Shown here: positions 39,433-48,610 of the stretch, piece by piece
Position numbering within the stretch: position 1 is the stretch's first letter
Layout of the letters: each line of letters starts with the position of its first letter
IMG/VR virus record: IMGVR_UViG_3300003316_000301
Coordinates: 91,980-155,979 of that record
Direction: 5' to 3' (one strand)
Length of the DNA: 64,000 nt
Source: a virus
Taxonomy: Duplodnaviria; Caudoviricetes
Made by a program: the position numbers and the translations under genes
Notes under the pieces: generated by a model
The model's input: only the letters and a program-made list of their open reading frames with translations
Databases searched by the model: none
Told to the model about the DNA's origin: nothing

Positions 39433-40329
39433 ATGACCGACCTGACCAGATCGAGCACCTCCCCCTTCGACGCGATCCGCCGCGAGGATGAGAACGGGGA
39501 GTACTGGCTCGCCCGGGACCTCCAGCCGCTGCTGGGGTACGCCCAGTGGCGCCGGTTCAACGACACGATCAACCGGGCCCGGGTCTCCGTGGCCGCCGCA
39601 GGCGGAGACGTCCGGCACCACTTTTCGCAGGTCAGCCAGGTTGCCGATGCTGGCAACCTGGGGACTCAGACCCGCTCGGACTTCCGGATGACCCGCTATG
39701 GGTGCTACCTGGTGGCCATGAACGGCGACACCTCCAAGAGGGAGATCGCCGACGCCCAGCAGTACTTCGCCGTCCAGACCCGCAGGGCCGAGGTGGCCGA
39801 GGAGCGCCCGGCCCTGCCCGGGACCTACCTGGAGGCCCTGAGGGCCCTCGTGGCCGAGGTGGAGGCCAAGGAGCGGGCCGAACTCCTCGCGGCCGAGAAG
39901 ACGGCCGAGGCGGACATGCTGAGGCCTCCTGCCGAGGCCTGGGAGACCCTCGCCGACACCGGCCAGGACTACTCGGTGAGGGAGGCGGCCTACATCCTGA
40001 AGCGGGACGCGGCCATCGCCGACCGTGTGGGACCCCGGCGCCTGTTCGACTGGATCGTGAGCCACGGGATGGCCCAGAGGAAGCCCACGGGGGCGTACGT
40101 GCCCTACGCGGACCACAGTGACCACCTGCGCCTGAAGCCCCAGTCCCGGCCCGATCACGAGTCCGGCGGCCTGAAGGAGGCCCACGCCCAGCTCCGGGTG
40201 ACCGTCAAGGGCCTGTCCTGGATCCAGCAGCGGATGCGCGAGGAGCTGAAGCCCGAGCTGGTTTCCGAGGGTCCCCGGGCCGAGGTGATCGACTTCACCG
40301 CGATCAGGACCGCGCCCCTGCGCCGGTAA
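39433..40329 (+). CDS. phage antirepressor (DinD/Bro-N-like N-domain plus KilAC/ANT C-domain)
   Basis: EYWLARDLQPLLGY..W..F, TRYGCYLVAMNGD..K.EIA.AQ.YFA.QTR, YSVREAA.IL, VTVKG. Confidence 0.88.
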   Translation: MTDLTRSSTSPFDAIRREDENGEYWLARDLQPLLGYAQWRRFNDTINRARVSVAAAGGDVRHHFSQVSQVADAGNLGTQTRSDFRMTRYGCYLVAMNGDTSKREIADAQQYFAVQTRRAEVAEERPALPGTYLEALRALVAEVEAKERAELLAAEKTAEADMLRPPAEAWETLADTGQDYSVREAAYILKRDAAIADRVGPRRLFDWIVSHGMAQRKPTGAYVPYADHSDHLRLKPQSRPDHESGGLKEAHAQLRVTVKGLSWIQQRMREELKPELVSEGPRAEVIDFTAIRTAPLRR

Positions 40330-40348
40330 CGCCGTGAGGGTGTTACCG
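40324..40348 (+). terminator. hairpin at the antirepressor stop
   Basis: CGGTAACGCC/GGTGTTACCG stem. Confidence 0.5.
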
Positions 40349-40398
40349 TGAGGGCCATAACATCCACGCCCCTGTTCCCAGGCGCGGTGTTCTGTCAG

Positions 40399-41181
40399 GC
40401 GAGAGCCCCTCGGACGTCACCGAAGGGCTCTCGCTGTTGGGTACGATCTGCGCACCCCCGGGGCCTGGACACACCCCGGGGGCTCCAGTGGGGACTGGGG
40501 AATGCAGAAAGGCCCCTCCGGTGCAAAACCCGCTCTCCACGAGTCGAGCGGGCCGGAGGGGCCTTCTGCGCTTCATTTCGGGACCGGGCGAACGCTTCTC
40601 CCAGGTTGGACGCCTGAGTTCTGCCCTCAGTCCGGAGTCCACCGACCAGGCACAGCCGGTGTATCTCGACAGACCTCTTGAACTCAGGTGCTCCCTGCGA
40701 CCTTTTCCGGGGCTGCGGGAGGACGTAACCCACAAGCGAGCCGGTTGTGCCAACAACCGGATGCCCCTCCCGGCGAGTGGAGTTGCAGACTCGCGGGGAC
40801 CTTTATTGTGACCGCCCTTGGCACGGCGGGGGAGGCCCTCTGGAGTTCAGATAAAGCCGAGGGCGGTCACACGCACTCCCGTTGAGGAGCGCTAGTGCAG
40901 GACCGGAGATTCGCACTCCGAACGGTCAGCCGGATCAACAGGGCATTCGGCTGCCGCGCGGCCGTAGGGCGGGTTCCTGTGCACCCATCGGGCCGTCCTG
41001 CTCCTCGTGCAATTTTGAGCGTTCCTGGTCGCCAAGCGGAGTTGGGGCTCCGCGAGGGACCGTCGTACAGCCCGTCCGGCCGCAGAGGTAGCCATCGGGG
41101 CACGAGGAGTGGCGCTCGACCTGTCCTACGAGTTCTGACGCGGGTCCTCGTTCTTGCCGCCATCCCCGGAAGGGGTTGACG
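40399..41181 (-). ncRNA. candidate large structured non-coding RNA with a tRNA-like module
   Basis: Consensus promoter directly upstream, no credible ORF or RBS, more than 12 helices, many with G-U pairs that work on the - strand, terminator-like hairpins at 40504-40569 and 40399-40434. Confidence 0.65.
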
Positions 41182-41187
41182 TCGTCA

Positions 41188-41217
41188 AGGTTACTACAAC
41201 GAATCCCGGGGAGTCAA
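41188..41217 (-). promoter_or_regulatory. phage promoter TTGACT-N18-TAACCT
   Basis: Close match to the promoter family; TTGAC-GTC-GTCAA palindrome at 41176-41188. Confidence 0.8.
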
Positions 41218-41219
41218 TT

Positions 41220-41495
41220 TCAGATCCGGGAGTCCTTGCAGCAGCACCAGCCGTCCATCTGGACCCCGAACCCCTCCCTCAGCTCATCGTCGCAGGAGAA
41301 GCAGCAGGGACCGATGTGGTGCCGGGAGGTGCACCAGAACCCGGAGAGGTCCTGGGAGCGGCTCAGGGCGGGCCAGAAGCGCCTGAACCACCGGAGCTGG
41401 GACGCGGGAGCCCACTTGGCCACCACGTCCGGCACACGGCCGCGTACGGGCTTGTGGACGGGCTCGTAGGAGGGGTCCTCCAGGGGCGCGGTCAC
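41220..41495 (-). CDS. small Cys-rich hypothetical protein
   Basis: GTGA coupling; C..HH..CC.SC...CCC. Confidence 0.6.
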   Translation of the reverse strand: MTAPLEDPSYEPVHKPVRGRVPDVVAKWAPASQLRWFRRFWPALSRSQDLSGFWCTSRHHIGPCCFSCDDELREGFGVQMDGWCCCKDSRI

Positions 41496-43042
41496 CCCTC
41501 CATCCCCTCGGTGAGCATCTGCTTGCGCATGGCGGCCGTCATGTACTCCTCGCCGGTGACTCCCCGGCCGAGCAGCTCGTCCGATTGCACATTGCCCCGC
41601 AGCATCGAGTACATCAGGCCGACCTCCACCGTCCGGCGGGCCAGCATCGAGCGCACGGTCACCGAGGGGCCGCCGGATCCGATCCGGCTCACCCGGTTCA
41701 GGCGCTGGGTGCGGATGCCGTACGTGGTCGCCATGTCGTACTCGACGAGGTAGGAGGCCTCGGGGACGTTGATCCCCCGGGCCCCGGCGTCCGAGGAGAG
41801 CAGCACCGCTCCCCCGGGATGGGCCTTGAAGGAGTCCAGCTCGTGGAGCATGAACACCCGGATGCCCGCCTTCGTCAGGGCCTCCGCGAGCCACGGGATC
41901 ACCGAGGGGCCGAAGAAGGTGAAGACCATGGCCTTGTCCTCCTGGTCCAGCACCACCGGCTCCAGATAGGCCACGAGGGCCTCTGTCTTGGCGCTGGAGA
42001 GGTTCAGGAAGTACTCCAGGCCGAATTCCTCCACCAGGCCCTTGGCGAGCTTGGAGGAGCCCTCCTGGGCGCTGTGGACGACCGCTCTGGGGTGAGCGCA
42101 GATCTGCCGCAGGGCCTGGAGCTGTCCTCCCACCCCGTCGAGCTCCTTGACGAGGTCGTAGAGCTTGCGCTGGTCGGCGTCCAGCTCCACCCAGAGGGCC
42201 TCCTCGGTCATCCGGGGGAACTGATCGATCACGTCGGCGTCCGTCTTGGACTTCGAGAGCATCAGCGGCTGGCAGATCGCCGCGAACTCCTCGGTGCGGT
42301 GGTCCCAGTAGCGGGCCTTGCCGTAGATGTCCCGGCCCCGCACGAAGTAGCTCTCGAACTCCTTGACCAGCGGCATGGACTGCGGCCTGAGCAGCCGGAG
42401 CTGGTTGAAGGAGTTCTCGTAGTCCTTGCGGATCGAGGTGGCCGTCATCATGACCGTGGGCAGGTTTTTAAAAACGCGCCTCAGGGTCTTCAGGGTGTGG
42501 TCGTACGCCTTGTAGGTGGCCGAGGTCCGGTTCGAGAGCTTGTCGGCCTCGTCGAAGATCACCATGGGGTGCGTTTGCTGGACCCTCTCCAGCAGCTCTC
42601 CGGACTCCACGGCCTTGCGGCGGTTGCGCATGACCGTCTTCACGAGGTCGGCCTTGCCGGTCTCGTACGTCGTGATCAAGACATCCGGGAGCGCTTCCTT
42701 AGCGAGCTTGTTCTTGCGCCCGGGACCGTGGTGGATGCGGACCGTGAGCTTCGTGAACCTCTCGAAGTCGTCCTTCCACTCCCTCAGCTTGTTCTTCTCG
42801 CACACGAGCAGCACGAAGTCCACCGTGTGGTCCTCGAACGCCAGGGCAGCGAGCTGCATGGCCGCGTGGGACTTCCCGAGGCCGGTGTCCCAGGCAAACA
42901 TCCACTCCGCCTGGGAGCCGTTCAGCATCCCCAGGTAGGCCTGGGCGACGTGCTCCGTCTGGAAGGGGTACAGGCCCCTCGGGGAGTAGTAGAGAGCCCC
43001 CTCGGGCCAGGCCGAGGGGGCTTCCAGAGTCTGTGCGGTCAC
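41492..43042 (-). CDS. SNF2-family helicase/translocase
   Basis: WDTGLGKS, FDEAD, MTAT, LRQICAHP, SDAGARGIN, QR..RV.RIG. Confidence 0.88.
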   Translation of the reverse strand: MTAQTLEAPSAWPEGALYYSPRGLYPFQTEHVAQAYLGMLNGSQAEWMFAWDTGLGKSHAAMQLAALAFEDHTVDFVLLVCEKNKLREWKDDFERFTKLTVRIHHGPGRKNKLAKEALPDVLITTYETGKADLVKTVMRNRRKAVESGELLERVQQTHPMVIFDEADKLSNRTSATYKAYDHTLKTLRRVFKNLPTVMMTATSIRKDYENSFNQLRLLRPQSMPLVKEFESYFVRGRDIYGKARYWDHRTEEFAAICQPLMLSKSKTDADVIDQFPRMTEEALWVELDADQRKLYDLVKELDGVGGQLQALRQICAHPRAVVHSAQEGSSKLAKGLVEEFGLEYFLNLSSAKTEALVAYLEPVVLDQEDKAMVFTFFGPSVIPWLAEALTKAGIRVFMLHELDSFKAHPGGAVLLSSDAGARGINVPEASYLVEYDMATTYGIRTQRLNRVSRIGSGGPSVTVRSMLARRTVEVGLMYSMLRGNVQSDELLGRGVTGEEYMTAAMRKQMLTEGMEG

Positions 43043-43338
43043 GCCGTCACCGTCGCTTCGTTCACCTCGAAGGTCCAGGAGACCTGCGCCAGTCCCCCGA
43101 CGGGGTCCAGGAGCTTGACGGCCACCAGGTCCTCGCCGCACTTCAGCTCCGCCGCGATGGGACCGGAGCCCATCAGCGGCAGGATCGCGATGAAGGTGAC
43201 GTGGTCCTCTCCGACGACCTTTCTCGCCTCCCCCATGTAGGGACCGGCGGTGATCGTCCAGGGTCCGGGATCGTGCAGGGCCCGTTCGATCTGCCGGGCA
43301 CGCAAGACCATGCGAGCGGCCACGTGATCGAGGCTCAT
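43039..43338 (-). CDS. hypothetical protein
   Basis: GGAGG RBS; coupled to the SNF2 gene. Confidence 0.65.
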   Translation of the reverse strand: MSLDHVAARMVLRARQIERALHDPGPWTITAGPYMGEARKVVGEDHVTFIAILPLMGSGPIAAELKCGEDLVAVKLLDPVGGLAQVSWTFEVNEATVTA

Positions 43339-43418: not shown

Positions 43419-45803
43419 TCAGAATCCGAAGGGGAGCACCAGGAAGTCGGAGACCTTCGTCGTCTCCGTAATGCGATACCCGAATTTCACGCGAGTGGTC
43501 CAGGTGGAGTCGGTGAAAGTGGAGATCTGGGTTCCGTTGGCCCGGATGACGACGGAGGTCCCGTTGCAGTCGGCCTGGAGAAGCTGGCCCGTGGCCACCG
43601 GAGCGGAATGGGTCGCCACGGTGCCGGTGATGGTGTTCCCCGACGTCGAGTACACGTACCGGCGCCCGACCAGATACCCCTTCAGGGTCGCGACGGGCTG
43701 ACCGCCCACGACGGACTTCTCGTGCAGGCACCTCAGCATCAGGCCGGTGGCGTCGTCGTGCGGGTGGTAACCGCCGGAGTCCACGTAGGGCTGGAGGGTC
43801 TGGGACCCCGTGGTGAGCATGGCCCCGTCGATGTGCATGATCGCGGTGTTCGGGACCACCACCGAGTCGTCGTTGCAGTAGCCGACGGAGACCGCCGCAT
43901 TGATGGCTCCGGCAGGAGCCGTGGCCCCGATGTTCAGCCGGGTCCAGGTGTTCAGGGTGGGCGCATTCACGATCGACTTGCTCGCCGAGATGAAGTCCCA
44001 GGTGTTCGTGAACCACTCGATGATCACGCCGACCTTATAGTTCTGCTGAGGCCGCACGTGGACCGACCAGTTCACATTCGTACCGGCGGTCGTGGTGAAC
44101 ACGAAGGCGGTCCGGTTGTACGTTCCCGTGCCGCTCGGGGTGAGCTTCAGCGAGTAGTTGCCGAACTTGGCGTAGGTGTTGTCCTGGAGAAGACCGAGCC
44201 CTCCGTCCCAGGCGCTCCAGCCGTTCGTGTCCGTCTCGAACTCGGAATTCCAGATGGCATTGGTGCCGGTGGGGTTGTAGACGAACTGGCCCTGCACGAT
44301 GACGTCCGAAAGGGCCGCCGAGTAGATGCCGGGAATCCCCATCGAGGGGAAGGGGCCGTTCGCCGAGTTCAGGACGATCTTCGAGGAAGCGATCGTGAGA
44401 TCGTTGGTCGCCCGGTAGTCCGGGCTCGTCGGAGGCAGCTTCCACTGGAGGGCCTGGCCGGTCTCGGCGAACTCGATCCGGGTCCCGTCCGCTCCGTGGC
44501 CGCCCTCGTACACCTGGGGGATGTCGTTGGTGTAGATCAGCCCGAGCCGGGACAGGGCCTGCATGGTCGACGTCAGAACCGGCCGCGAGTAGTCCCCGGA
44601 GTTGTAGGTGATCTTCTGCCGGGTGGTCCCCGTCTGGCCGAAGAAGCCCAGGGTGGTCGTGGCGTTCTGGTAGGTCCGCTGGCCGTTGACCACGACGTCG
44701 CCCTTGGCCCTCAGAGCCATCCGGGTGACCGCGTTGCCCTGGAGCAGCGTGAGAGACGGGGAGAAGCTCGTGGAGTTCGTCCCCATGGCCATGGGTCCGA
44801 TGCCGCAGAACACGTCATCGGCGCTCGCCTGGTCCGAGGGGTCTCCGGCCAGGGTGATGTTCTTGCCCAGGGCGATCGGGTTCTGGGCCGTGGCCCAGGG
44901 GAGGTTGTTGTTCTGGGCCGAGTTCGCGTTGCCGATCACCGTGTGGTTCGGCCCGGCGCCGGTGGTCGTGGTGTGGTTCGCGCCGATCTTGACGGTGCCG
45001 GAGGCCCCCACCGAGGAACCGGGTCCGATCAGGACCGAGGTGGCCGCGTTGGCCGTGGCCGTGGAGAAGCCGCCCAGGACGGTCATCTCCCGGCCCAGGG
45101 AGGTCATGTTGACGGGACCGGCCACCGTGGAGGAGTACGTGGCGTCTCCGTCCCCGGAGGAGAGCACCGTGGCCATGTCGCCGGAGACGCCGGTGGAGTG
45201 GGCCACGATCCCCGCGATGCCGAGCACCGTGGAGGAGGCGCCGTTCAGCTCCGCATGGGGACCGAGCGCGCTGGATCCCGCCGACGAGGAGGCAGTGTTC
45301 TCGCCCGCGTGGTAGCCGATCCAGGTCTGGTAGGGGTTGAAGTCCGTCGGGGGCTCCCCGGTCAGGACCATGGAGCCCTTGGAGTCGCCCTCGTGCTCGT
45401 GGGTGCCCACGGGGTCGGCCACCCGGAAGGCAGCATGGCCCGGCTCCGCCGACATGAGCACGGCCGTGGTGTCCACTCCGTCGGCGCCGGTGACCATCAG
45501 GCGCCCGGGGGTGCGCACGATGACGTCCGCCGGGGGCAGGATGTCGATCCCGAACAGGTACACCTTGGTGTTGTCGGAGACCTCGGCGACGATGTTGACC
45601 CGCATGGGCTCGTCGGTCCATAGGTCGATGACCGCCGGGTCCACGAAGAGCGGGAACGAGATGGGGTTGCCGCCGTCCGCCTGCACGAAGACGTCGTCGG
45701 CCAGCGGGCCGCCGCTCGTCGCGTCGGTGAGGGTGACCGAGGCGTACGGGAAGACGTTGCCCGCGCTGTCCGTGATCGGCAGGTGGATGTGGCAGCGGCT
45801 CAC
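43419..45803 (-). CDS. tail fibre / receptor-binding protein with carbohydrate-binding-like domain
   Basis: Shared fibre N-domain, G/T/S-rich repeats, N..FE....GW CBM-like start. Confidence 0.7.
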   Translation of the reverse strand: MSRCHIHLPITDSAGNVFPYASVTLTDATSGGPLADDVFVQADGGNPISFPLFVDPAVIDLWTDEPMRVNIVAEVSDNTKVYLFGIDILPPADVIVRTPGRLMVTGADGVDTTAVLMSAEPGHAAFRVADPVGTHEHEGDSKGSMVLTGEPPTDFNPYQTWIGYHAGENTASSSAGSSALGPHAELNGASSTVLGIAGIVAHSTGVSGDMATVLSSGDGDATYSSTVAGPVNMTSLGREMTVLGGFSTATANAATSVLIGPGSSVGASGTVKIGANHTTTTGAGPNHTVIGNANSAQNNNLPWATAQNPIALGKNITLAGDPSDQASADDVFCGIGPMAMGTNSTSFSPSLTLLQGNAVTRMALRAKGDVVVNGQRTYQNATTTLGFFGQTGTTRQKITYNSGDYSRPVLTSTMQALSRLGLIYTNDIPQVYEGGHGADGTRIEFAETGQALQWKLPPTSPDYRATNDLTIASSKIVLNSANGPFPSMGIPGIYSAALSDVIVQGQFVYNPTGTNAIWNSEFETDTNGWSAWDGGLGLLQDNTYAKFGNYSLKLTPSGTGTYNRTAFVFTTTAGTNVNWSVHVRPQQNYKVGVIIEWFTNTWDFISASKSIVNAPTLNTWTRLNIGATAPAGAINAAVSVGYCNDDSVVVPNTAIMHIDGAMLTTGSQTLQPYVDSGGYHPHDDATGLMLRCLHEKSVVGGQPVATLKGYLVGRRYVYSTSGNTITGTVATHSAPVATGQLLQADCNGTSVVIRANGTQISTFTDSTWTTRVKFGYRITETTKVSDFLVLPFGF

Positions 45804-48610
45804 TTGTAGAGCACCCCTCCGTTGATCTGGTCGTACGCCCAGAAGTACTGGAAGCCCGCCGTGCCGGTGCCCCGGATGCCCAGGCCGTAGCGGTTCGAGG
45901 CGAGCAGGGCGGCCGTGGTGTCGGTGGTGGAGCCGACCACGGTCCCGTTTTTAGAAACGGTGATCAGGCCGCTCTGATTGAAGGTGACCAGCATCTTGTC
46001 CCCGGCCGCGAAGTTCGACGACAGGGTGGCCAGGGTCGTCTGGGTGCCCGCGAGCACCCGGGTGATCTGCGAGTTGTTGATGAAGTAGTAGTTGTTCGCG
46101 TCCACGTACCGGCCGACCACTCCCATGCCGGTGGTCGGGGTGATGGAGGCGCTCCACTTCGTGTTGACCTGCTTGGCGCCCGAGGTCGCCCCGAGCAGGA
46201 CGTACGCCAGGGCGTAGCCGCCGGAGGCTCCGGTGAGCTGGAGGTTGCCCGCCACGCTGACCGTGGAGCCCGCGCCGGATCCCGACTGCACCGGCCACCA
46301 GGCCTCACCGGAGGCCGCGTTGCTCAGGGCACCCGTGGTCTTGAAGCCGTCGAAGCAGATCGGGCCCATGAAGATGATGTTGTTCAGCTTCGTGGTGGTC
46401 TGCGCGAGGTCGAAGCCCACGTAGGTGCCGGTGAGGTTCAGGGCCGCGCTGTTGAAGAACGCCGGGGTGCCGTTGACCGAGTCGACGTACATCACGTTCG
46501 CACCGGAGCAGGCCACGATGTGAGCGTGCGAAGTGTTGTTGAAGGGCAGCGATCCGAGCGAGGTCAGGGTGACCGAGTTGCCGCCCGCCACGGTGTAGAC
46601 GTTGGAGGCGTCTCCGGCGGCCTTGGTGGCCAGTGAGACGGTGTCCGCCGCCTGGTCGAGGATCACGTACCCCGCAGCCGCCGCAGAGCCTGTGGCGCCC
46701 GTGTGGCGGATCGCGAGCATCATCTTGTTCGTGGTCCCCGAGGGGAACGTGGCCGCGAAGTAGAAGTTCTGCCGGGGCTGGTAGAAGTTCTTCAGGATCC
46801 CCAGACCGCCCGCGTAGCCCTTGTAGGCGTTGTGGTCGGCGCCCACGTACCACTGGGGGCCGGACGGGTACGGCGACTGGTCGGAGAAGGCCAGCGGCCG
46901 GTAGGTGTACGGCTGGAAGTCGAAGTCGGCGATGCCCAGGGAGCCGTCGCCCGGATCCTGGTGGTAGAAGTAGTCGATGATCCCGACCGGGTTGGGGCTG
47001 GTGAACGGCTGCTCCACCGTGTTGTTGACGATCAGGCCGTAGCTGGCCAGCGCCTGCACCAGGGAGCGCACGGTGGCGTTGCCGTCGTCGGAGCCGCCCA
47101 CGGTCTGGAGCACGTTGCCCGCGACCCCGTAGAAGCCGATCCGGCTGTCCGAGGAGCCCAGGGACGCCAGGCCGTAGTTCTGGAGCGAGCCGGTGATCGT
47201 GGTGATCGAGCCGTCGTGGCCCAGCATCACCTGGTTGGCGCTCGTGGTCGCCGAGAAGGCCCCCAGCGCCACGGAGTTGTTGTGCGTGGTGTCCACGAGG
47301 GCGTTCTGGCCGATGGCCACACCGGAGGGTGCCAGGGCCTGGGCCCCCGAGCCGATGGCGACGCCGTACGTGCCCGAGGGGCCCACCGTGGCGCCCGAAC
47401 CCACTGCCGCTCCGTAGTCGGCCCCGGCCACCGCCGTCTTGCCGACGGCCACCGCCTCCAGCCCGTTGGCGTTGGCGTTGTACCCGATGGCGACCCAGCC
47501 CGTCTGGGTGGCTGATCCGGTCGCTCCGGCTCCGGCGGCCAGGGAGTTGTCCGTGGTGGCGCTGGCGTTCATACCGGCGGCCAGGGAGCTGGCGCCGGAG
47601 GCCGTGGCGTTGTACCCGAAGGCGCTCGCGCTGGTGCCCGTGGCATCCGCCGAGGCCCCTACGGCCGTCGCCTGGGTGGCCGTGGCCGTGGCACCAGTGC
47701 CGAGGGCCACCGAGTTCGTGCCGGTGCCGTTGTGGTTGTGTGGCGGGATGTTGCCGCCGTACTGGGAGACGTAGCCCGTCATCCAGACGTCGTGGGTTCC
47801 CGCGACGAAGGTCGTCTGGCCGGTGTACGTGAACAGCGGGGTCCAGGTACCGGCGGCCAGGTCGAAGGAGTAGAAGCCCCAGTCCTGGGTCTGCGAGACG
47901 GTGGCCAGGGTGGTCTGGACGGCCGAGGGGTTGACGACCTTCATGGTGAAGGTCTCCGTGGCCGACAGGGAGGACTTGACCCACAGGGACAGACGTCCGG
48001 CCTCCAGAAGGGTGAACGTCGGTCCGGTGAGGGCCACCGAGCCGCTGTTCGCGTTCTGGGTCATCTTCAGCGAGTAGCTGTAGTTCGTGTCCGGCGGGAT
48101 CGTCAGGGGGTCGTAGGAGTGGGTCGCTCCCCCGCTCTGCACGAACGACCAGTCCACCGGGTCGGATCCGGAGTTGAAGGACTGGGAGGAAACCACGACG
48201 ACCGGGGTGAGCCCGGTACCGGCCGGAGGGTTTCCCCACTGGGCCTGCCCGGCCGTCGCGGTGCTCAGGAGAACCTGGCCCGAGGTGGATGGCTGGTTGA
48301 CGATCTCCATCGGCACCGTGGAGGAGACGATCTCCTCCGGCGGGGGCGGAGCATCCAGGTAGACCAGGATGTCGTCCACCGACTCGTGCTCGACCAGGAT
48401 GGACATCCGCTGCGGGGTGTCCAGCCAGAAGTCGATCACACCGTTGGTGGCCGTGAAGGGATTCGCGAGCTGGTCGTCCCCCGTGGGCCCGGCATACAGC
48501 GGCTGCCCGATCGCGACCGAGTAGTTCACCTCGCGCACGGTCACCGCCGCGTTGTACAGCAGGTTGCCCTCGCGGTCGGTGATGGGGCGGAACAGGTGTG
48601 CACGGGCCAC
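45800..48610 (-). CDS. tail fibre with YadA-head-like repeats
   Basis: About ten 14-residue (S/A)xAxGxxAxA repeats; beta-rich C-terminus. Confidence 0.75.
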   Translation of the reverse strand: MARAHLFRPITDREGNLLYNAAVTVREVNYSVAIGQPLYAGPTGDDQLANPFTATNGVIDFWLDTPQRMSILVEHESVDDILVYLDAPPPPEEIVSSTVPMEIVNQPSTSGQVLLSTATAGQAQWGNPPAGTGLTPVVVVSSQSFNSGSDPVDWSFVQSGGATHSYDPLTIPPDTNYSYSLKMTQNANSGSVALTGPTFTLLEAGRLSLWVKSSLSATETFTMKVVNPSAVQTTLATVSQTQDWGFYSFDLAAGTWTPLFTYTGQTTFVAGTHDVWMTGYVSQYGGNIPPHNHNGTGTNSVALGTGATATATQATAVGASADATGTSASAFGYNATASGASSLAAGMNASATTDNSLAAGAGATGSATQTGWVAIGYNANANGLEAVAVGKTAVAGADYGAAVGSGATVGPSGTYGVAIGSGAQALAPSGVAIGQNALVDTTHNNSVALGAFSATTSANQVMLGHDGSITTITGSLQNYGLASLGSSDSRIGFYGVAGNVLQTVGGSDDGNATVRSLVQALASYGLIVNNTVEQPFTSPNPVGIIDYFYHQDPGDGSLGIADFDFQPYTYRPLAFSDQSPYPSGPQWYVGADHNAYKGYAGGLGILKNFYQPRQNFYFAATFPSGTTNKMMLAIRHTGATGSAAAAGYVILDQAADTVSLATKAAGDASNVYTVAGGNSVTLTSLGSLPFNNTSHAHIVACSGANVMYVDSVNGTPAFFNSAALNLTGTYVGFDLAQTTTKLNNIIFMGPICFDGFKTTGALSNAASGEAWWPVQSGSGAGSTVSVAGNLQLTGASGGYALAYVLLGATSGAKQVNTKWSASITPTTGMGVVGRYVDANNYYFINNSQITRVLAGTQTTLATLSSNFAAGDKMLVTFNQSGLITVSKNGTVVGSTTDTTAALLASNRYGLGIRGTGTAGFQYFWAYDQINGGVLYK

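Follow-up and report, generated by a model that had tools for sequence, protein, structure and literature searches.

The non-coding unit and its genomic setting

The DNA analysed in this study, called the window here, is a stretch of 64,000 nucleotides that corresponds to bases 91980-155979 of a 155,979-bp virus record. The record is rated complete and belongs to an uncultured phage of ~156 kb. The G+C content of the window is 67%, and its minus strand carries nearly all of the genes. A gene-free stretch of ~890 nt separates a small Cys-rich ORF (41495-41220, minus strand) from a convergent antirepressor (Ant) gene (39433-40329, plus strand). In a frame-by-frame GC3 analysis, no coding-like frame was found in 40330-41219. 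The neighbours of this non-coding unit are an SNF2 helicase gene, the small Cys-rich ORF, and the convergent antirepressor gene, with no integrase domain among them. Elsewhere in the genome, the phage has its sole true tRNA gene (genome positions 56576-56502), in which CCA is not encoded and the acceptor is followed by A-CUU. Since this gene is without an encoded CCA, the phage depends on the host for 3' trimming and CCA addition.

The features of the unit are listed in Table 1. It is headed by a promoter-like repeat, a 42-nt motif (TTGACT...TAGTAACCTTGACGACGTCAA, 41217-41176) of which there are ~14 copies on the gene strand of the 156-kb genome. This number of copies makes it most likely that the repeat represents the phage's own promoter type, and it would function as a promoter here as well. 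The same promoter-like motif also heads the RNA in the homologous loci. A simple sigma-70 scanner did not call the repeat at 41217-41176, and a simple terminator scanner gave no call for the long hairpin at 40565-40504, which is likely to be the 3' end of the carrier RNA. With the promoter repeat at one end and the terminator hairpin at the other, the carrier unit would be a single transcript.

Table 1. Positions in the window of the carrier RNA, the tRNA-like module, and their parts
Feature	Positions	Strand	Sequence and remarks
Promoter-like repeat heading the non-coding unit	41176..41217	-	TTGACT ... TAGTAACC, then inverted repeat TTGACGACGTCAA
Carrier, structured non-coding RNA of ~680 nt, from promoter repeat to terminator hairpin	40504..41183	-	Both ends predicted
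Leader	41002..41029	-	ACCAGGAAC..GCACGAGGA, ending in conserved GA before G1; conserved in the window, L016, and L018
Acceptor-like stem, 5' strand	40995..41001	-	GCAGGAC; pairs with GUCCUGC 40903-40897
Arm 1	40960..40994	-	35 nt; closing pairs invariant GG..CC; loop segment ACAGG 40980-40976 pairs with arm 2 loop
Arm 2	40922..40957	-	36 nt; enlarged conserved loop AAUGCCCUGUUGAUC; segment CCUGU 40942-40938; kissing partner of arm 1
T arm	40904..40920	-	CGGAG-UGCGAAU-CUCCG; T loop 40915-40909; closing pair G53:C61; G replaces U55
Acceptor-like stem, 3' strand, with discriminator-like A	40896..40903	-	GUCCUGC 40903-40897 and unpaired A 40896; CUA next, 40895-40893
Trailing hairpin	40872..40892	-	GCGCUCC-UCAACG-GGAGUGC; moves with the module as one cassette
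Long terminator-like hairpin	40504..40565	-	Conserved loop CGACUCGUGGAG and U tract; stem covaries (A4 columns 687-747)

The carrier RNA is kept in 16 syntenic loci, where it is flanked by the SNF2 helicase on one side and the convergent Ant gene on the other. In alignment A4, which holds five full-length RNAs, its consensus fold contains 46 covarying pairs. Two pairings seen when the RNA of the window was folded by itself were rejected. A long-range closing helix between the 5' motif GGACAGGUCGAGCGCC and the 3' end, and a pairing of UCCUCGUGC with GCACGAGGA directly upstream of the module, occur in this fold and are not kept in the relatives.

Fold of the tRNA-like module and its conservation in related loci

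The tRNA-like module starts ~180 nt inside the ~680-nt unit, lies on the minus strand, and is 106 nt long to the discriminator. All of the coordinates and letters given for it in the original prediction were exact, base for base. Its acceptor-like stem stacks directly on the T arm, and the loop of arm 2, with 13-15 nt, pairs with the loop of arm 1. This loop-loop kiss between the arms had escaped the earlier reading of the sequence. The leader is unpaired in the consensus fold, and its final GA is found directly 5' of G1 in 7 of 7 full-form modules. When the isolated 109 nt was folded, the minimum free energy structure and the centroid were both the described four-way junction (-50.7 kcal/mol, z = -2.96), and 2 of 200 shuffles folded as well as the module. 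The junction was also present when the whole 661-nt region was folded.

We counted how often this arrangement occurs by chance. The window has 214 sites at which a 7-bp stem directly adjoins a 5-bp, 7-nt-loop stem, compared to ~205 in dinucleotide shuffles, so that the geometry alone is uninformative. When the T-loop sequence U[G/U]C[A/G]AAU was added to the geometry, the module was the one site left in the window, and none of 100 shuffles contained such a site.

Related loci were collected through the neighbouring helicase. Three IMG/VR contigs were found via the SNF2 helicase and the conserved RNA motif, and further loci came from twelve look-ups of helicase homologues with 54-88% identity. 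Helicase relatives in GenBank phages (Gordonia, Mycobacterium, and Rhodococcus phages, among others) reached only 22-26% identity, and blastn of the 891-nt region against GenBank phages gave no match. Motif scans of viral contigs yielded L008, L010, L012, and L013, which were discarded as chance matches in coding DNA. A metagenome scan matched only the known contig and an identical copy, and a first scan of bacterial genomes gave no match. The loose pattern GATTCGCA-N(18-32)-GGGRCAT was also run against two collections; among the matches listed, all candidates failed inspection and provided neither a new member nor a host. In the phage genome, covariance model R1, which was built from the seven full forms described below, had a single match, the module itself.

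The gene order is common to 16 of 16 loci and consists of tail-fibre-like genes, the helicase, 0-2 small ORFs, a gene-free stretch of 800-1100 nt, and the convergent antirepressor. The gene-free stretch is headed by the same promoter motif in every one of them. The module was found at the same relative place in 12 of these 16 loci. Seven loci (the window, L011, L016, L018, L022, L024, and L025) have the full four-way form of 103-108 nt, and the module of L006 is 70 nt long with a single arm. The distant relatives L027 and L028 retain a D arm of class-II type (GAGCGGCCAAA / GAGUGGCCGAA) together with a long variable arm and a UUCGAAU loop, which is canonical, but have no 7-nt anticodon loop. 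The D arm, the variable arm, and the UUCGAAU loop argue for descent of the module from a real tRNA. In L021 and L023, a bare 12-bp minihelix is all that is kept, followed by A-CC or A-CU, which points to the minihelix as the selected core. The loop of the L021 minihelix departs from the T-loop pattern, with the 12 bp and the A-CC tail retained.

The module is absent from L020 and L026, and other sequence stands in its place in L005 and L017. According to alignment A4, the leader, module, and trailing hairpin form a single block of ~155 nt that comes and goes as a whole; it is missing in L020 and replaced by other sequence in L017. The module is an optional cassette within the carrier, and the carrier can do without it.

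The original prediction depended in part on the conservation of the pairings in homologues. We found that the pairs are kept in the related loci, with compensatory changes and different stem sequences. The stem sequence differs from locus to locus across the 12 related loci and the stack is nevertheless kept. The acceptor-plus-T stack is 12 bp in 11 of 11 tabulated loci, divided as 7+5 or, in L024 and L025, as 8+4. Among the tabulated loci, G1 and C2:G71 are nearly invariant, A73 is unpaired in 10 of 11, and C74 is present in 11 of 11. The T loop, the G53:C61 closing pair, and the unpaired A73 are kept in most of the 12 loci. The description of the module as a tRNA mimic embedded in a large RNA was borne out by this conservation.

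Covariation was then quantified in the seven full forms. The proportion of paired cells was 93.5%, compared to 72.7% in shuffles, and 0 of 500 shuffles scored as high. When the partner strand was slid by 1-3 columns as a control, pairing was 43-57%. Two-sided changes were found in 17 of 24 pairs. The acceptor stem was paired at 7 of 7 positions in 7 of 7 full forms, with compensatory changes at four of the seven positions, and compensatory changes were found in 5 of 5 pairs of the T stem. Every helix showed such changes on both strands. The stems contain G·U pairs, which shows that the RNA is read from the minus strand. In every full form, the loop of arm 1 is complementary to that of arm 2, and the loop-loop helix covaries, with the variants GACGGGA/UCCCGUC, GGUGGGA/UCCCACC, GAGGGGA/UCCCCUC, and AACGGG/CCCGUU in the relatives and ACAGG/CCUGU in the window. 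Since compensating mutations preserve the fold in related phages, the module is selected and not due to chance. On the strength of this covariation, we take the module to be a real, selected tRNA look-alike, and the part under selection to be the acceptor/T stack.

The T loop is UGCGAAU or UGCAAAU, with G55, in 7 of 7 full forms, and position 55 is U in L006, L023, L027, and L028. This distribution suggests that position 55 answers to whatever replaced the D loop.

Comparison with tRNAs and other tRNA-like RNAs

The original prediction expected no canonical tRNA call, and neither ARAGORN at default settings nor the Rfam tRNA model gave one. At default settings, ARAGORN found no tRNA and no tmRNA in the window. 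With the Rfam tRNA model RF00005, the module was not among the matches at E <= 10, and the related forms were unmatched at E <= 1. When the settings of ARAGORN were relaxed, the module was called as an intron-bearing tRNA, with an anticodon that differs in each relative. Compared to tRNA (RF00005), the module shares the 7-bp acceptor stem on a 5-bp T stem, the 7-nt T loop, G53:C61, G1:C72, and the unpaired A73. Of the T-loop residues, U54, C56, G57, and A58 are present, and all seven full forms, the window included, have G at position 55. The module differs from tRNA in having no G18 G19 D loop and no 7-nt anticodon loop, and in having enlarged arms that kiss. We therefore rejected a working tRNA, as the module is without a D loop, an anticodon loop, and an Rfam tRNA or default ARAGORN call. 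In L027 and L028, the only loci that keep a D arm, this arm is of class-II type and is accompanied by a long variable arm, as in class II tRNA. The module shares with the phage's own tRNA that CCA is not encoded, and its A-CUA resembles the A-CUU of that tRNA. The tRNA-like domain of tmRNA, which is built from both ends of an RNA encoding a tag peptide, was also rejected, because the window has no tmRNA by ARAGORN and none from Rfam.

The carrier was compared with known large RNAs. At gathering thresholds, no Rfam family was found for the carrier or the module in the window and in 11 homologous loci. Nor did searches at E <= 10 on the module region and at E <= 1 on four more loci give a family for either of them; the matches seen were at chance level only (the nrdJ RNA at 23.6 bits, and microRNA models). 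Across the whole phage genome, neither the GOLLD (RF02032) nor the ROOL model had a match at E <= 10. GOLLD, a large RNA of phages and prophages, has a linker that sometimes contains tRNAs or a pseudo-tRNA (bioRxiv 10.1101/2024.12.08.627333; PMC6582537). Like GOLLD, the carrier is a large multi-domain, phage-borne non-coding RNA with a nested tRNA-type element, and in both this element has a variable internal position, with lower conservation on its 5' side than on its 3' side. GOLLD is found in Mycobacterium tRNA arrays as well. The carrier differs from it in having no GOLLD, ROOL, or other Rfam match, and its nested element is a remodelled four-way junction and no decodable tRNA.

tRNA-like elements that borrow the tRNA-processing machinery occur in plant mitochondria, in human long non-coding RNAs, and in some animal viruses. 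The t-elements of plant mitochondria are tRNA-like and direct RNase P and RNase Z cuts in longer RNAs (PMC1920247). The mascRNA of MALAT1 is a tRNA-like element that likewise directs such cuts and to which CCA is added (PMC8457004). The tRNA-like/miRNA units of gammaherpesvirus 68 have a tRNA-like fold within a longer transcript (PMC4337559). The borders of the element are cleaved in these systems by RNase P, RNase Z, or both. The module shares with all three an acceptor/T-arm tRNA-like fold inside a longer non-tRNA transcript. However, those systems are eukaryotic, organellar, or animal-viral, whereas the module is from a bacteriophage and its cleavage is predicted, and its kissing-arm architecture has no counterpart in them. 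In phage T4, the stable RNAs species 1 and species 2 (rnaC and rnaD) are anticodon-less with tRNA-like ends, are produced by the tRNA-processing machinery, and are encoded in a tRNA gene cluster. By description only, the module resembles them as a phage-encoded, anticodon-less RNA with tRNA-like ends; it differs from them in lying inside a 680-nt structured RNA and not in a tRNA gene cluster.

The YrlA RNA (RF02553) is likewise a bacterial and phage RNA with a domain that mimics the acceptor, T, and D part of tRNA. In YrlA, however, both ends of the chain are found at the anticodon-stem position, and a loop closes the acceptor-like stem, whereas both ends of the module are at its acceptor stem. 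The YrlA model had no match at E <= 10 in 40200-41600. A YrlA-type Y RNA was rejected on the lack of a model match and on the position of the chain ends at the acceptor stem. YrlA-like units are found elsewhere in the same phage genome, where they adjoin a Ro60 gene.

Putative processing of the module and alternative explanations

RNase P, RNase Z, and CCA-adding enzymes use the acceptor/T stack of a tRNA for recognition or as the point from which they measure (PMC4810234). We consider it most likely that the module recruits the host RNase P, RNase Z, and CCA-adding enzyme. The module is a tRNA-derived, anticodon-less, tRNA-shaped domain, with the 12-bp coaxial acceptor/T stack and its T-loop cap as the constant core. 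In the window's form, two accessory arms joined by the loop-loop kiss take the place of the D and anticodon arms. The cassette of leader, module, and trailing hairpin stands mid-carrier in the ~680-nt phage non-coding RNA, which would be transcribed from the repeat promoter, and the module would offer the 'top half' of a tRNA to the tRNA-maturation enzymes of the host. RNase P cleavage would fall between A41002 and G41001, the 3' end would be trimmed back to A40896 by RNase Z or exonucleases, and the CCA-adding enzyme would tail the product. As the outcome, a tRNA-shaped RNA of ~106 nt would be released, and the rest of the carrier would be left as two fragments, ~180 nt on the 5' side and ~390 nt on the 3' side. 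We favour such an excision at 41002|41001 and after 40896, at about even odds.

The processing reading fits the data because two relatives have a bare minihelix, the leader is single-stranded, and the phage tRNA is also without CCA. We also counted in its favour the 12-bp stack and unpaired A73 common to the tabulated forms (A73 in 10 of 11), and the precedents of the t-elements (PMC1920247) and mascRNA (PMC8457004). Since L020 and L026 have no cassette and L005 and L017 have other sequence in its place, cutting cannot be essential to the carrier's own function. Some features of the full forms point in another direction. The change of U55 to G in 7 of 7 kissing-arm forms and the missing D loop could weaken elbow recognition by RNase P and RNase Z. 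The stem may also continue as an internal helix in the full forms, with G(-2) pairing to C74 across an A·A mismatch. A role in architecture alone would likewise be compatible with how strictly the T loop and the kissing loops are conserved.

These features bear on an alternative that we regard as possible, if on balance improbable, namely that the module stays uncleaved in the large RNA and has an architectural or protein-binding role, in which the T loop and the kissing arms serve for tertiary or quaternary contacts or for a tRNA-binding protein. A module of this kind can be likened to the tRNAs tethered in the GOLLD RNA linker, and those linker tRNAs or pseudo-tRNA provide a parallel (bioRxiv 10.1101/2024.12.08.627333; PMC6582537). 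The module lies between conserved hairpin domains of a multi-domain RNA, its T loop is invariant and its stems vary, and a G(-2):C74 pair is possible beyond the A·A mismatch. In addition, G55 occurs only with kissing arms (7 of 7), as against U55 in L006, L023, L027, and L028, and this confinement suggests a module-internal or RNA-RNA contact. However, a fixed 12-bp stack and an unpaired A73 would be needless for an arbitrary structural arm. The L021 minihelix keeps the 12 bp and the A-CC tail with a loop off the T-loop pattern, and the carrier can do without the cassette. At the other extreme, the module could be a decaying tRNA pseudogene, a chance fold, or the core of a tRNA-derived attachment site, and have no function at the RNA level. 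Degenerate tRNA genes are frequently carried by phages, the relaxed ARAGORN calls of an intron-bearing tRNA have inconsistent anticodons between loci, and the geometry alone is frequent by chance. We consider this explanation highly improbable, because the compensatory changes on both strands of every helix, and in the tertiary kiss as well, would not persist without selection on the RNA. The aligned loci are also not recent copies of one another, with helicase identities of 54-88%. An attachment core reproduces just the 3' portion of a host tRNA and lies next to an integrase. Here, both acceptor strands are present and covary, the 5' strand included, and the nearby genes are the helicase, the small Cys-rich ORF, and the antirepressor, with no integrase domain, so that an attachment-site core from a host tRNA was rejected.

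Phages counter tRNA-targeting defences with their own tRNAs. The original prediction had proposed a tRNA decoy, for example against host anticodon nucleases, and a decoy or sponge, released or not, might in general be directed at a host factor that attacks tRNAs, either an anticodon nuclease or an acceptor-end toxin. A phage-borne module that copies the acceptor/T half of tRNA, the known use of phage tRNAs against such defences, and the other tRNA mimicry in the same phage (the YrlA-like RNAs adjoining the Ro60 gene) are consistent with this role, which we nevertheless rate as unlikely. The example of anticodon nucleases was not supported. There is no 7-nt anticodon-type loop in the module, and the arm at that place has a loop of 13-15 nt that pairs with the other arm in the kiss. 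Moreover, the arms are reduced or absent in several relatives, both being missing in L021 and L023 and one in L006. A decoy role is conceivable only for factors that read the acceptor half. For acceptor-end toxins the evidence leans neither way; the module is present in one copy per genome. A more far-reaching reading, which we hold to be doubtful, combines release with such a role. The 680-nt RNA would represent a new modular class of phage scaffold with exchangeable cassettes, a functional GOLLD analogue unrelated in sequence, from which the tRNA-shaped cassette is excised and CCA-tailed as a non-decoding tRNA surrogate. The surrogate might serve as a sponge for toxins that modify or cleave the acceptor ends of tRNAs, with the kissing arms turning it into a dead-end substrate.

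tRNA mimicry inside a larger viral RNA is already known as a theme. The fold of a minihelix with two kissing arms, the carrier RNA, and the graded series were absent from the libraries searched. The conserved carrier RNA is without a catalogued family and provides a family to work on. Its module forms a graded series from a near-tRNA through a four-way junction with a covarying kiss and a bare 12-bp minihelix to absence, and the series reveals the acceptor/T stack as the selected part and makes the proposed recruitment of tRNA-maturation enzymes open to in vitro tests with standard enzymes. The cleavage sites are predicted to the nucleotide. The presence of Ro60 and Y-RNA-like tRNA mimics in the same phage suggests that tRNA mimicry is used in more than one way by this phage group.

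Apparent exchangeable cassettes and the probable ends of the carrier RNA

The carrier RNA, a structured non-coding RNA of ~680 nt, appears to be made up of swappable cassettes. In L017, a syntenic locus of a related phage, an exchangeable hairpin, CCCCUGCGGGG-AAGCACGGUC, occupied the place of the tRNA-like cassette of the window. We also found a recurring motif of ~35 nt, GGCCCCG..CUGUGGCCG.AA.GGGGCACC, which was present in 1-2 copies per RNA in the 3' half of the unit at seven loci (L006, L011, L021, L023, L024, L026, and L027) and was not seen in the window. This motif has the look of a small module, either a hairpin or a pseudoknot.

The RNA unit was preceded by the promoter-like repeat in all related phages. 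This phage-specific repeat was found at ~13 further minus-strand sites in the full phage genome (G000), for example at genome positions 86297, 74837, 88673, 92420, and 70077, and in many cases a palindrome that may serve as an operator, TTGACnnnGTCA, came after it. At the other end of the RNA, the stem of the terminator-like hairpin covaried and its apical sequence, C(A/G)ACU(C/U)GUGGAG, was conserved; the conserved loop probably has a role beyond transcription termination. The two strong hairpins beyond the terminator were kept in L020 and L005, and the stretch that contains them showed a sub-threshold resemblance to nrdJ RNA (23.6 bits vs a gathering score of 40.3).

Features of the carrier RNA locus, its relatives, and the phage Ro60 region
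Feature	Position	Strand	Remarks
Promoter-like repeat cTTGACnCnCCnnnnATCCTTGTAGTAACC	window 41176-41217	-	heads the RNA unit
Small ORF, 91 codons	window 41220-41495	-	overlaps the helicase stop (GTGA)
Terminator-like hairpin	window 40504-40565	-	closes the large RNA; equivalent in all homologous loci
Further pair of strong hairpins: CCCCGGGGUGUGUCCAGGCCCCGGGG; GCGAGAGCCCUUCGG..CCGAGGGGCUCUCGC	window 40330-40500	-	between RNA terminator and convergent antirepressor gene
Long runs of irregular 8-9-nt repeat	L025:1-100; L026, L028		start of regions downstream of helicase
TROVE/Ro60 (Rsr-like) gene and tRNA-like array	G000:C1 ~45,700-48,250	+	outside window; locus L031:1200-2200 and L038

Variation in the neighbouring genes and intergenic regions

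The SNF2 helicase of the window (41495-43141) has 549 aa, whereas five homologues (P0017, P0034, P0040, P0041, and P0050) have 843-863 aa. The longer helicases of several related phages carried ~330 extra residues with a LAGLIDADG_3 domain (PF14528), most likely an intein inserted in the helicase. The small ORF is Cys-rich (..CCFSCDDE..DGWCCCKDSRI) and matched no Pfam or PHROG family. It was kept in L006 and L026; L005 and L017 lacked it, and there the RNA promoter came directly after the helicase. The irregular repeat, which reads ..GCCTTGCC ACGCCCTGCC GCGCCTTACC.. in runs that terminate in AAGACCTGACTCTATCAGG, was found at several intergenic sites in some relatives.

A phage Ro60 gene with tRNA-like units

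The phage also encodes a Ro60 (Rsr-like) protein (PF05731, E 3e-20) in an open frame of 605 aa, and the tRNA-like units of the array lie immediately upstream of this gene. For two of them, the YrlA model (Y RNA-like, RF02553) gave matches to its tRNA-like core that scored 36-38 bits (E ~1e-5) and did not reach the gathering score of 69. Weak matches to the T-arm of RF00005 indicated additional units in the array.
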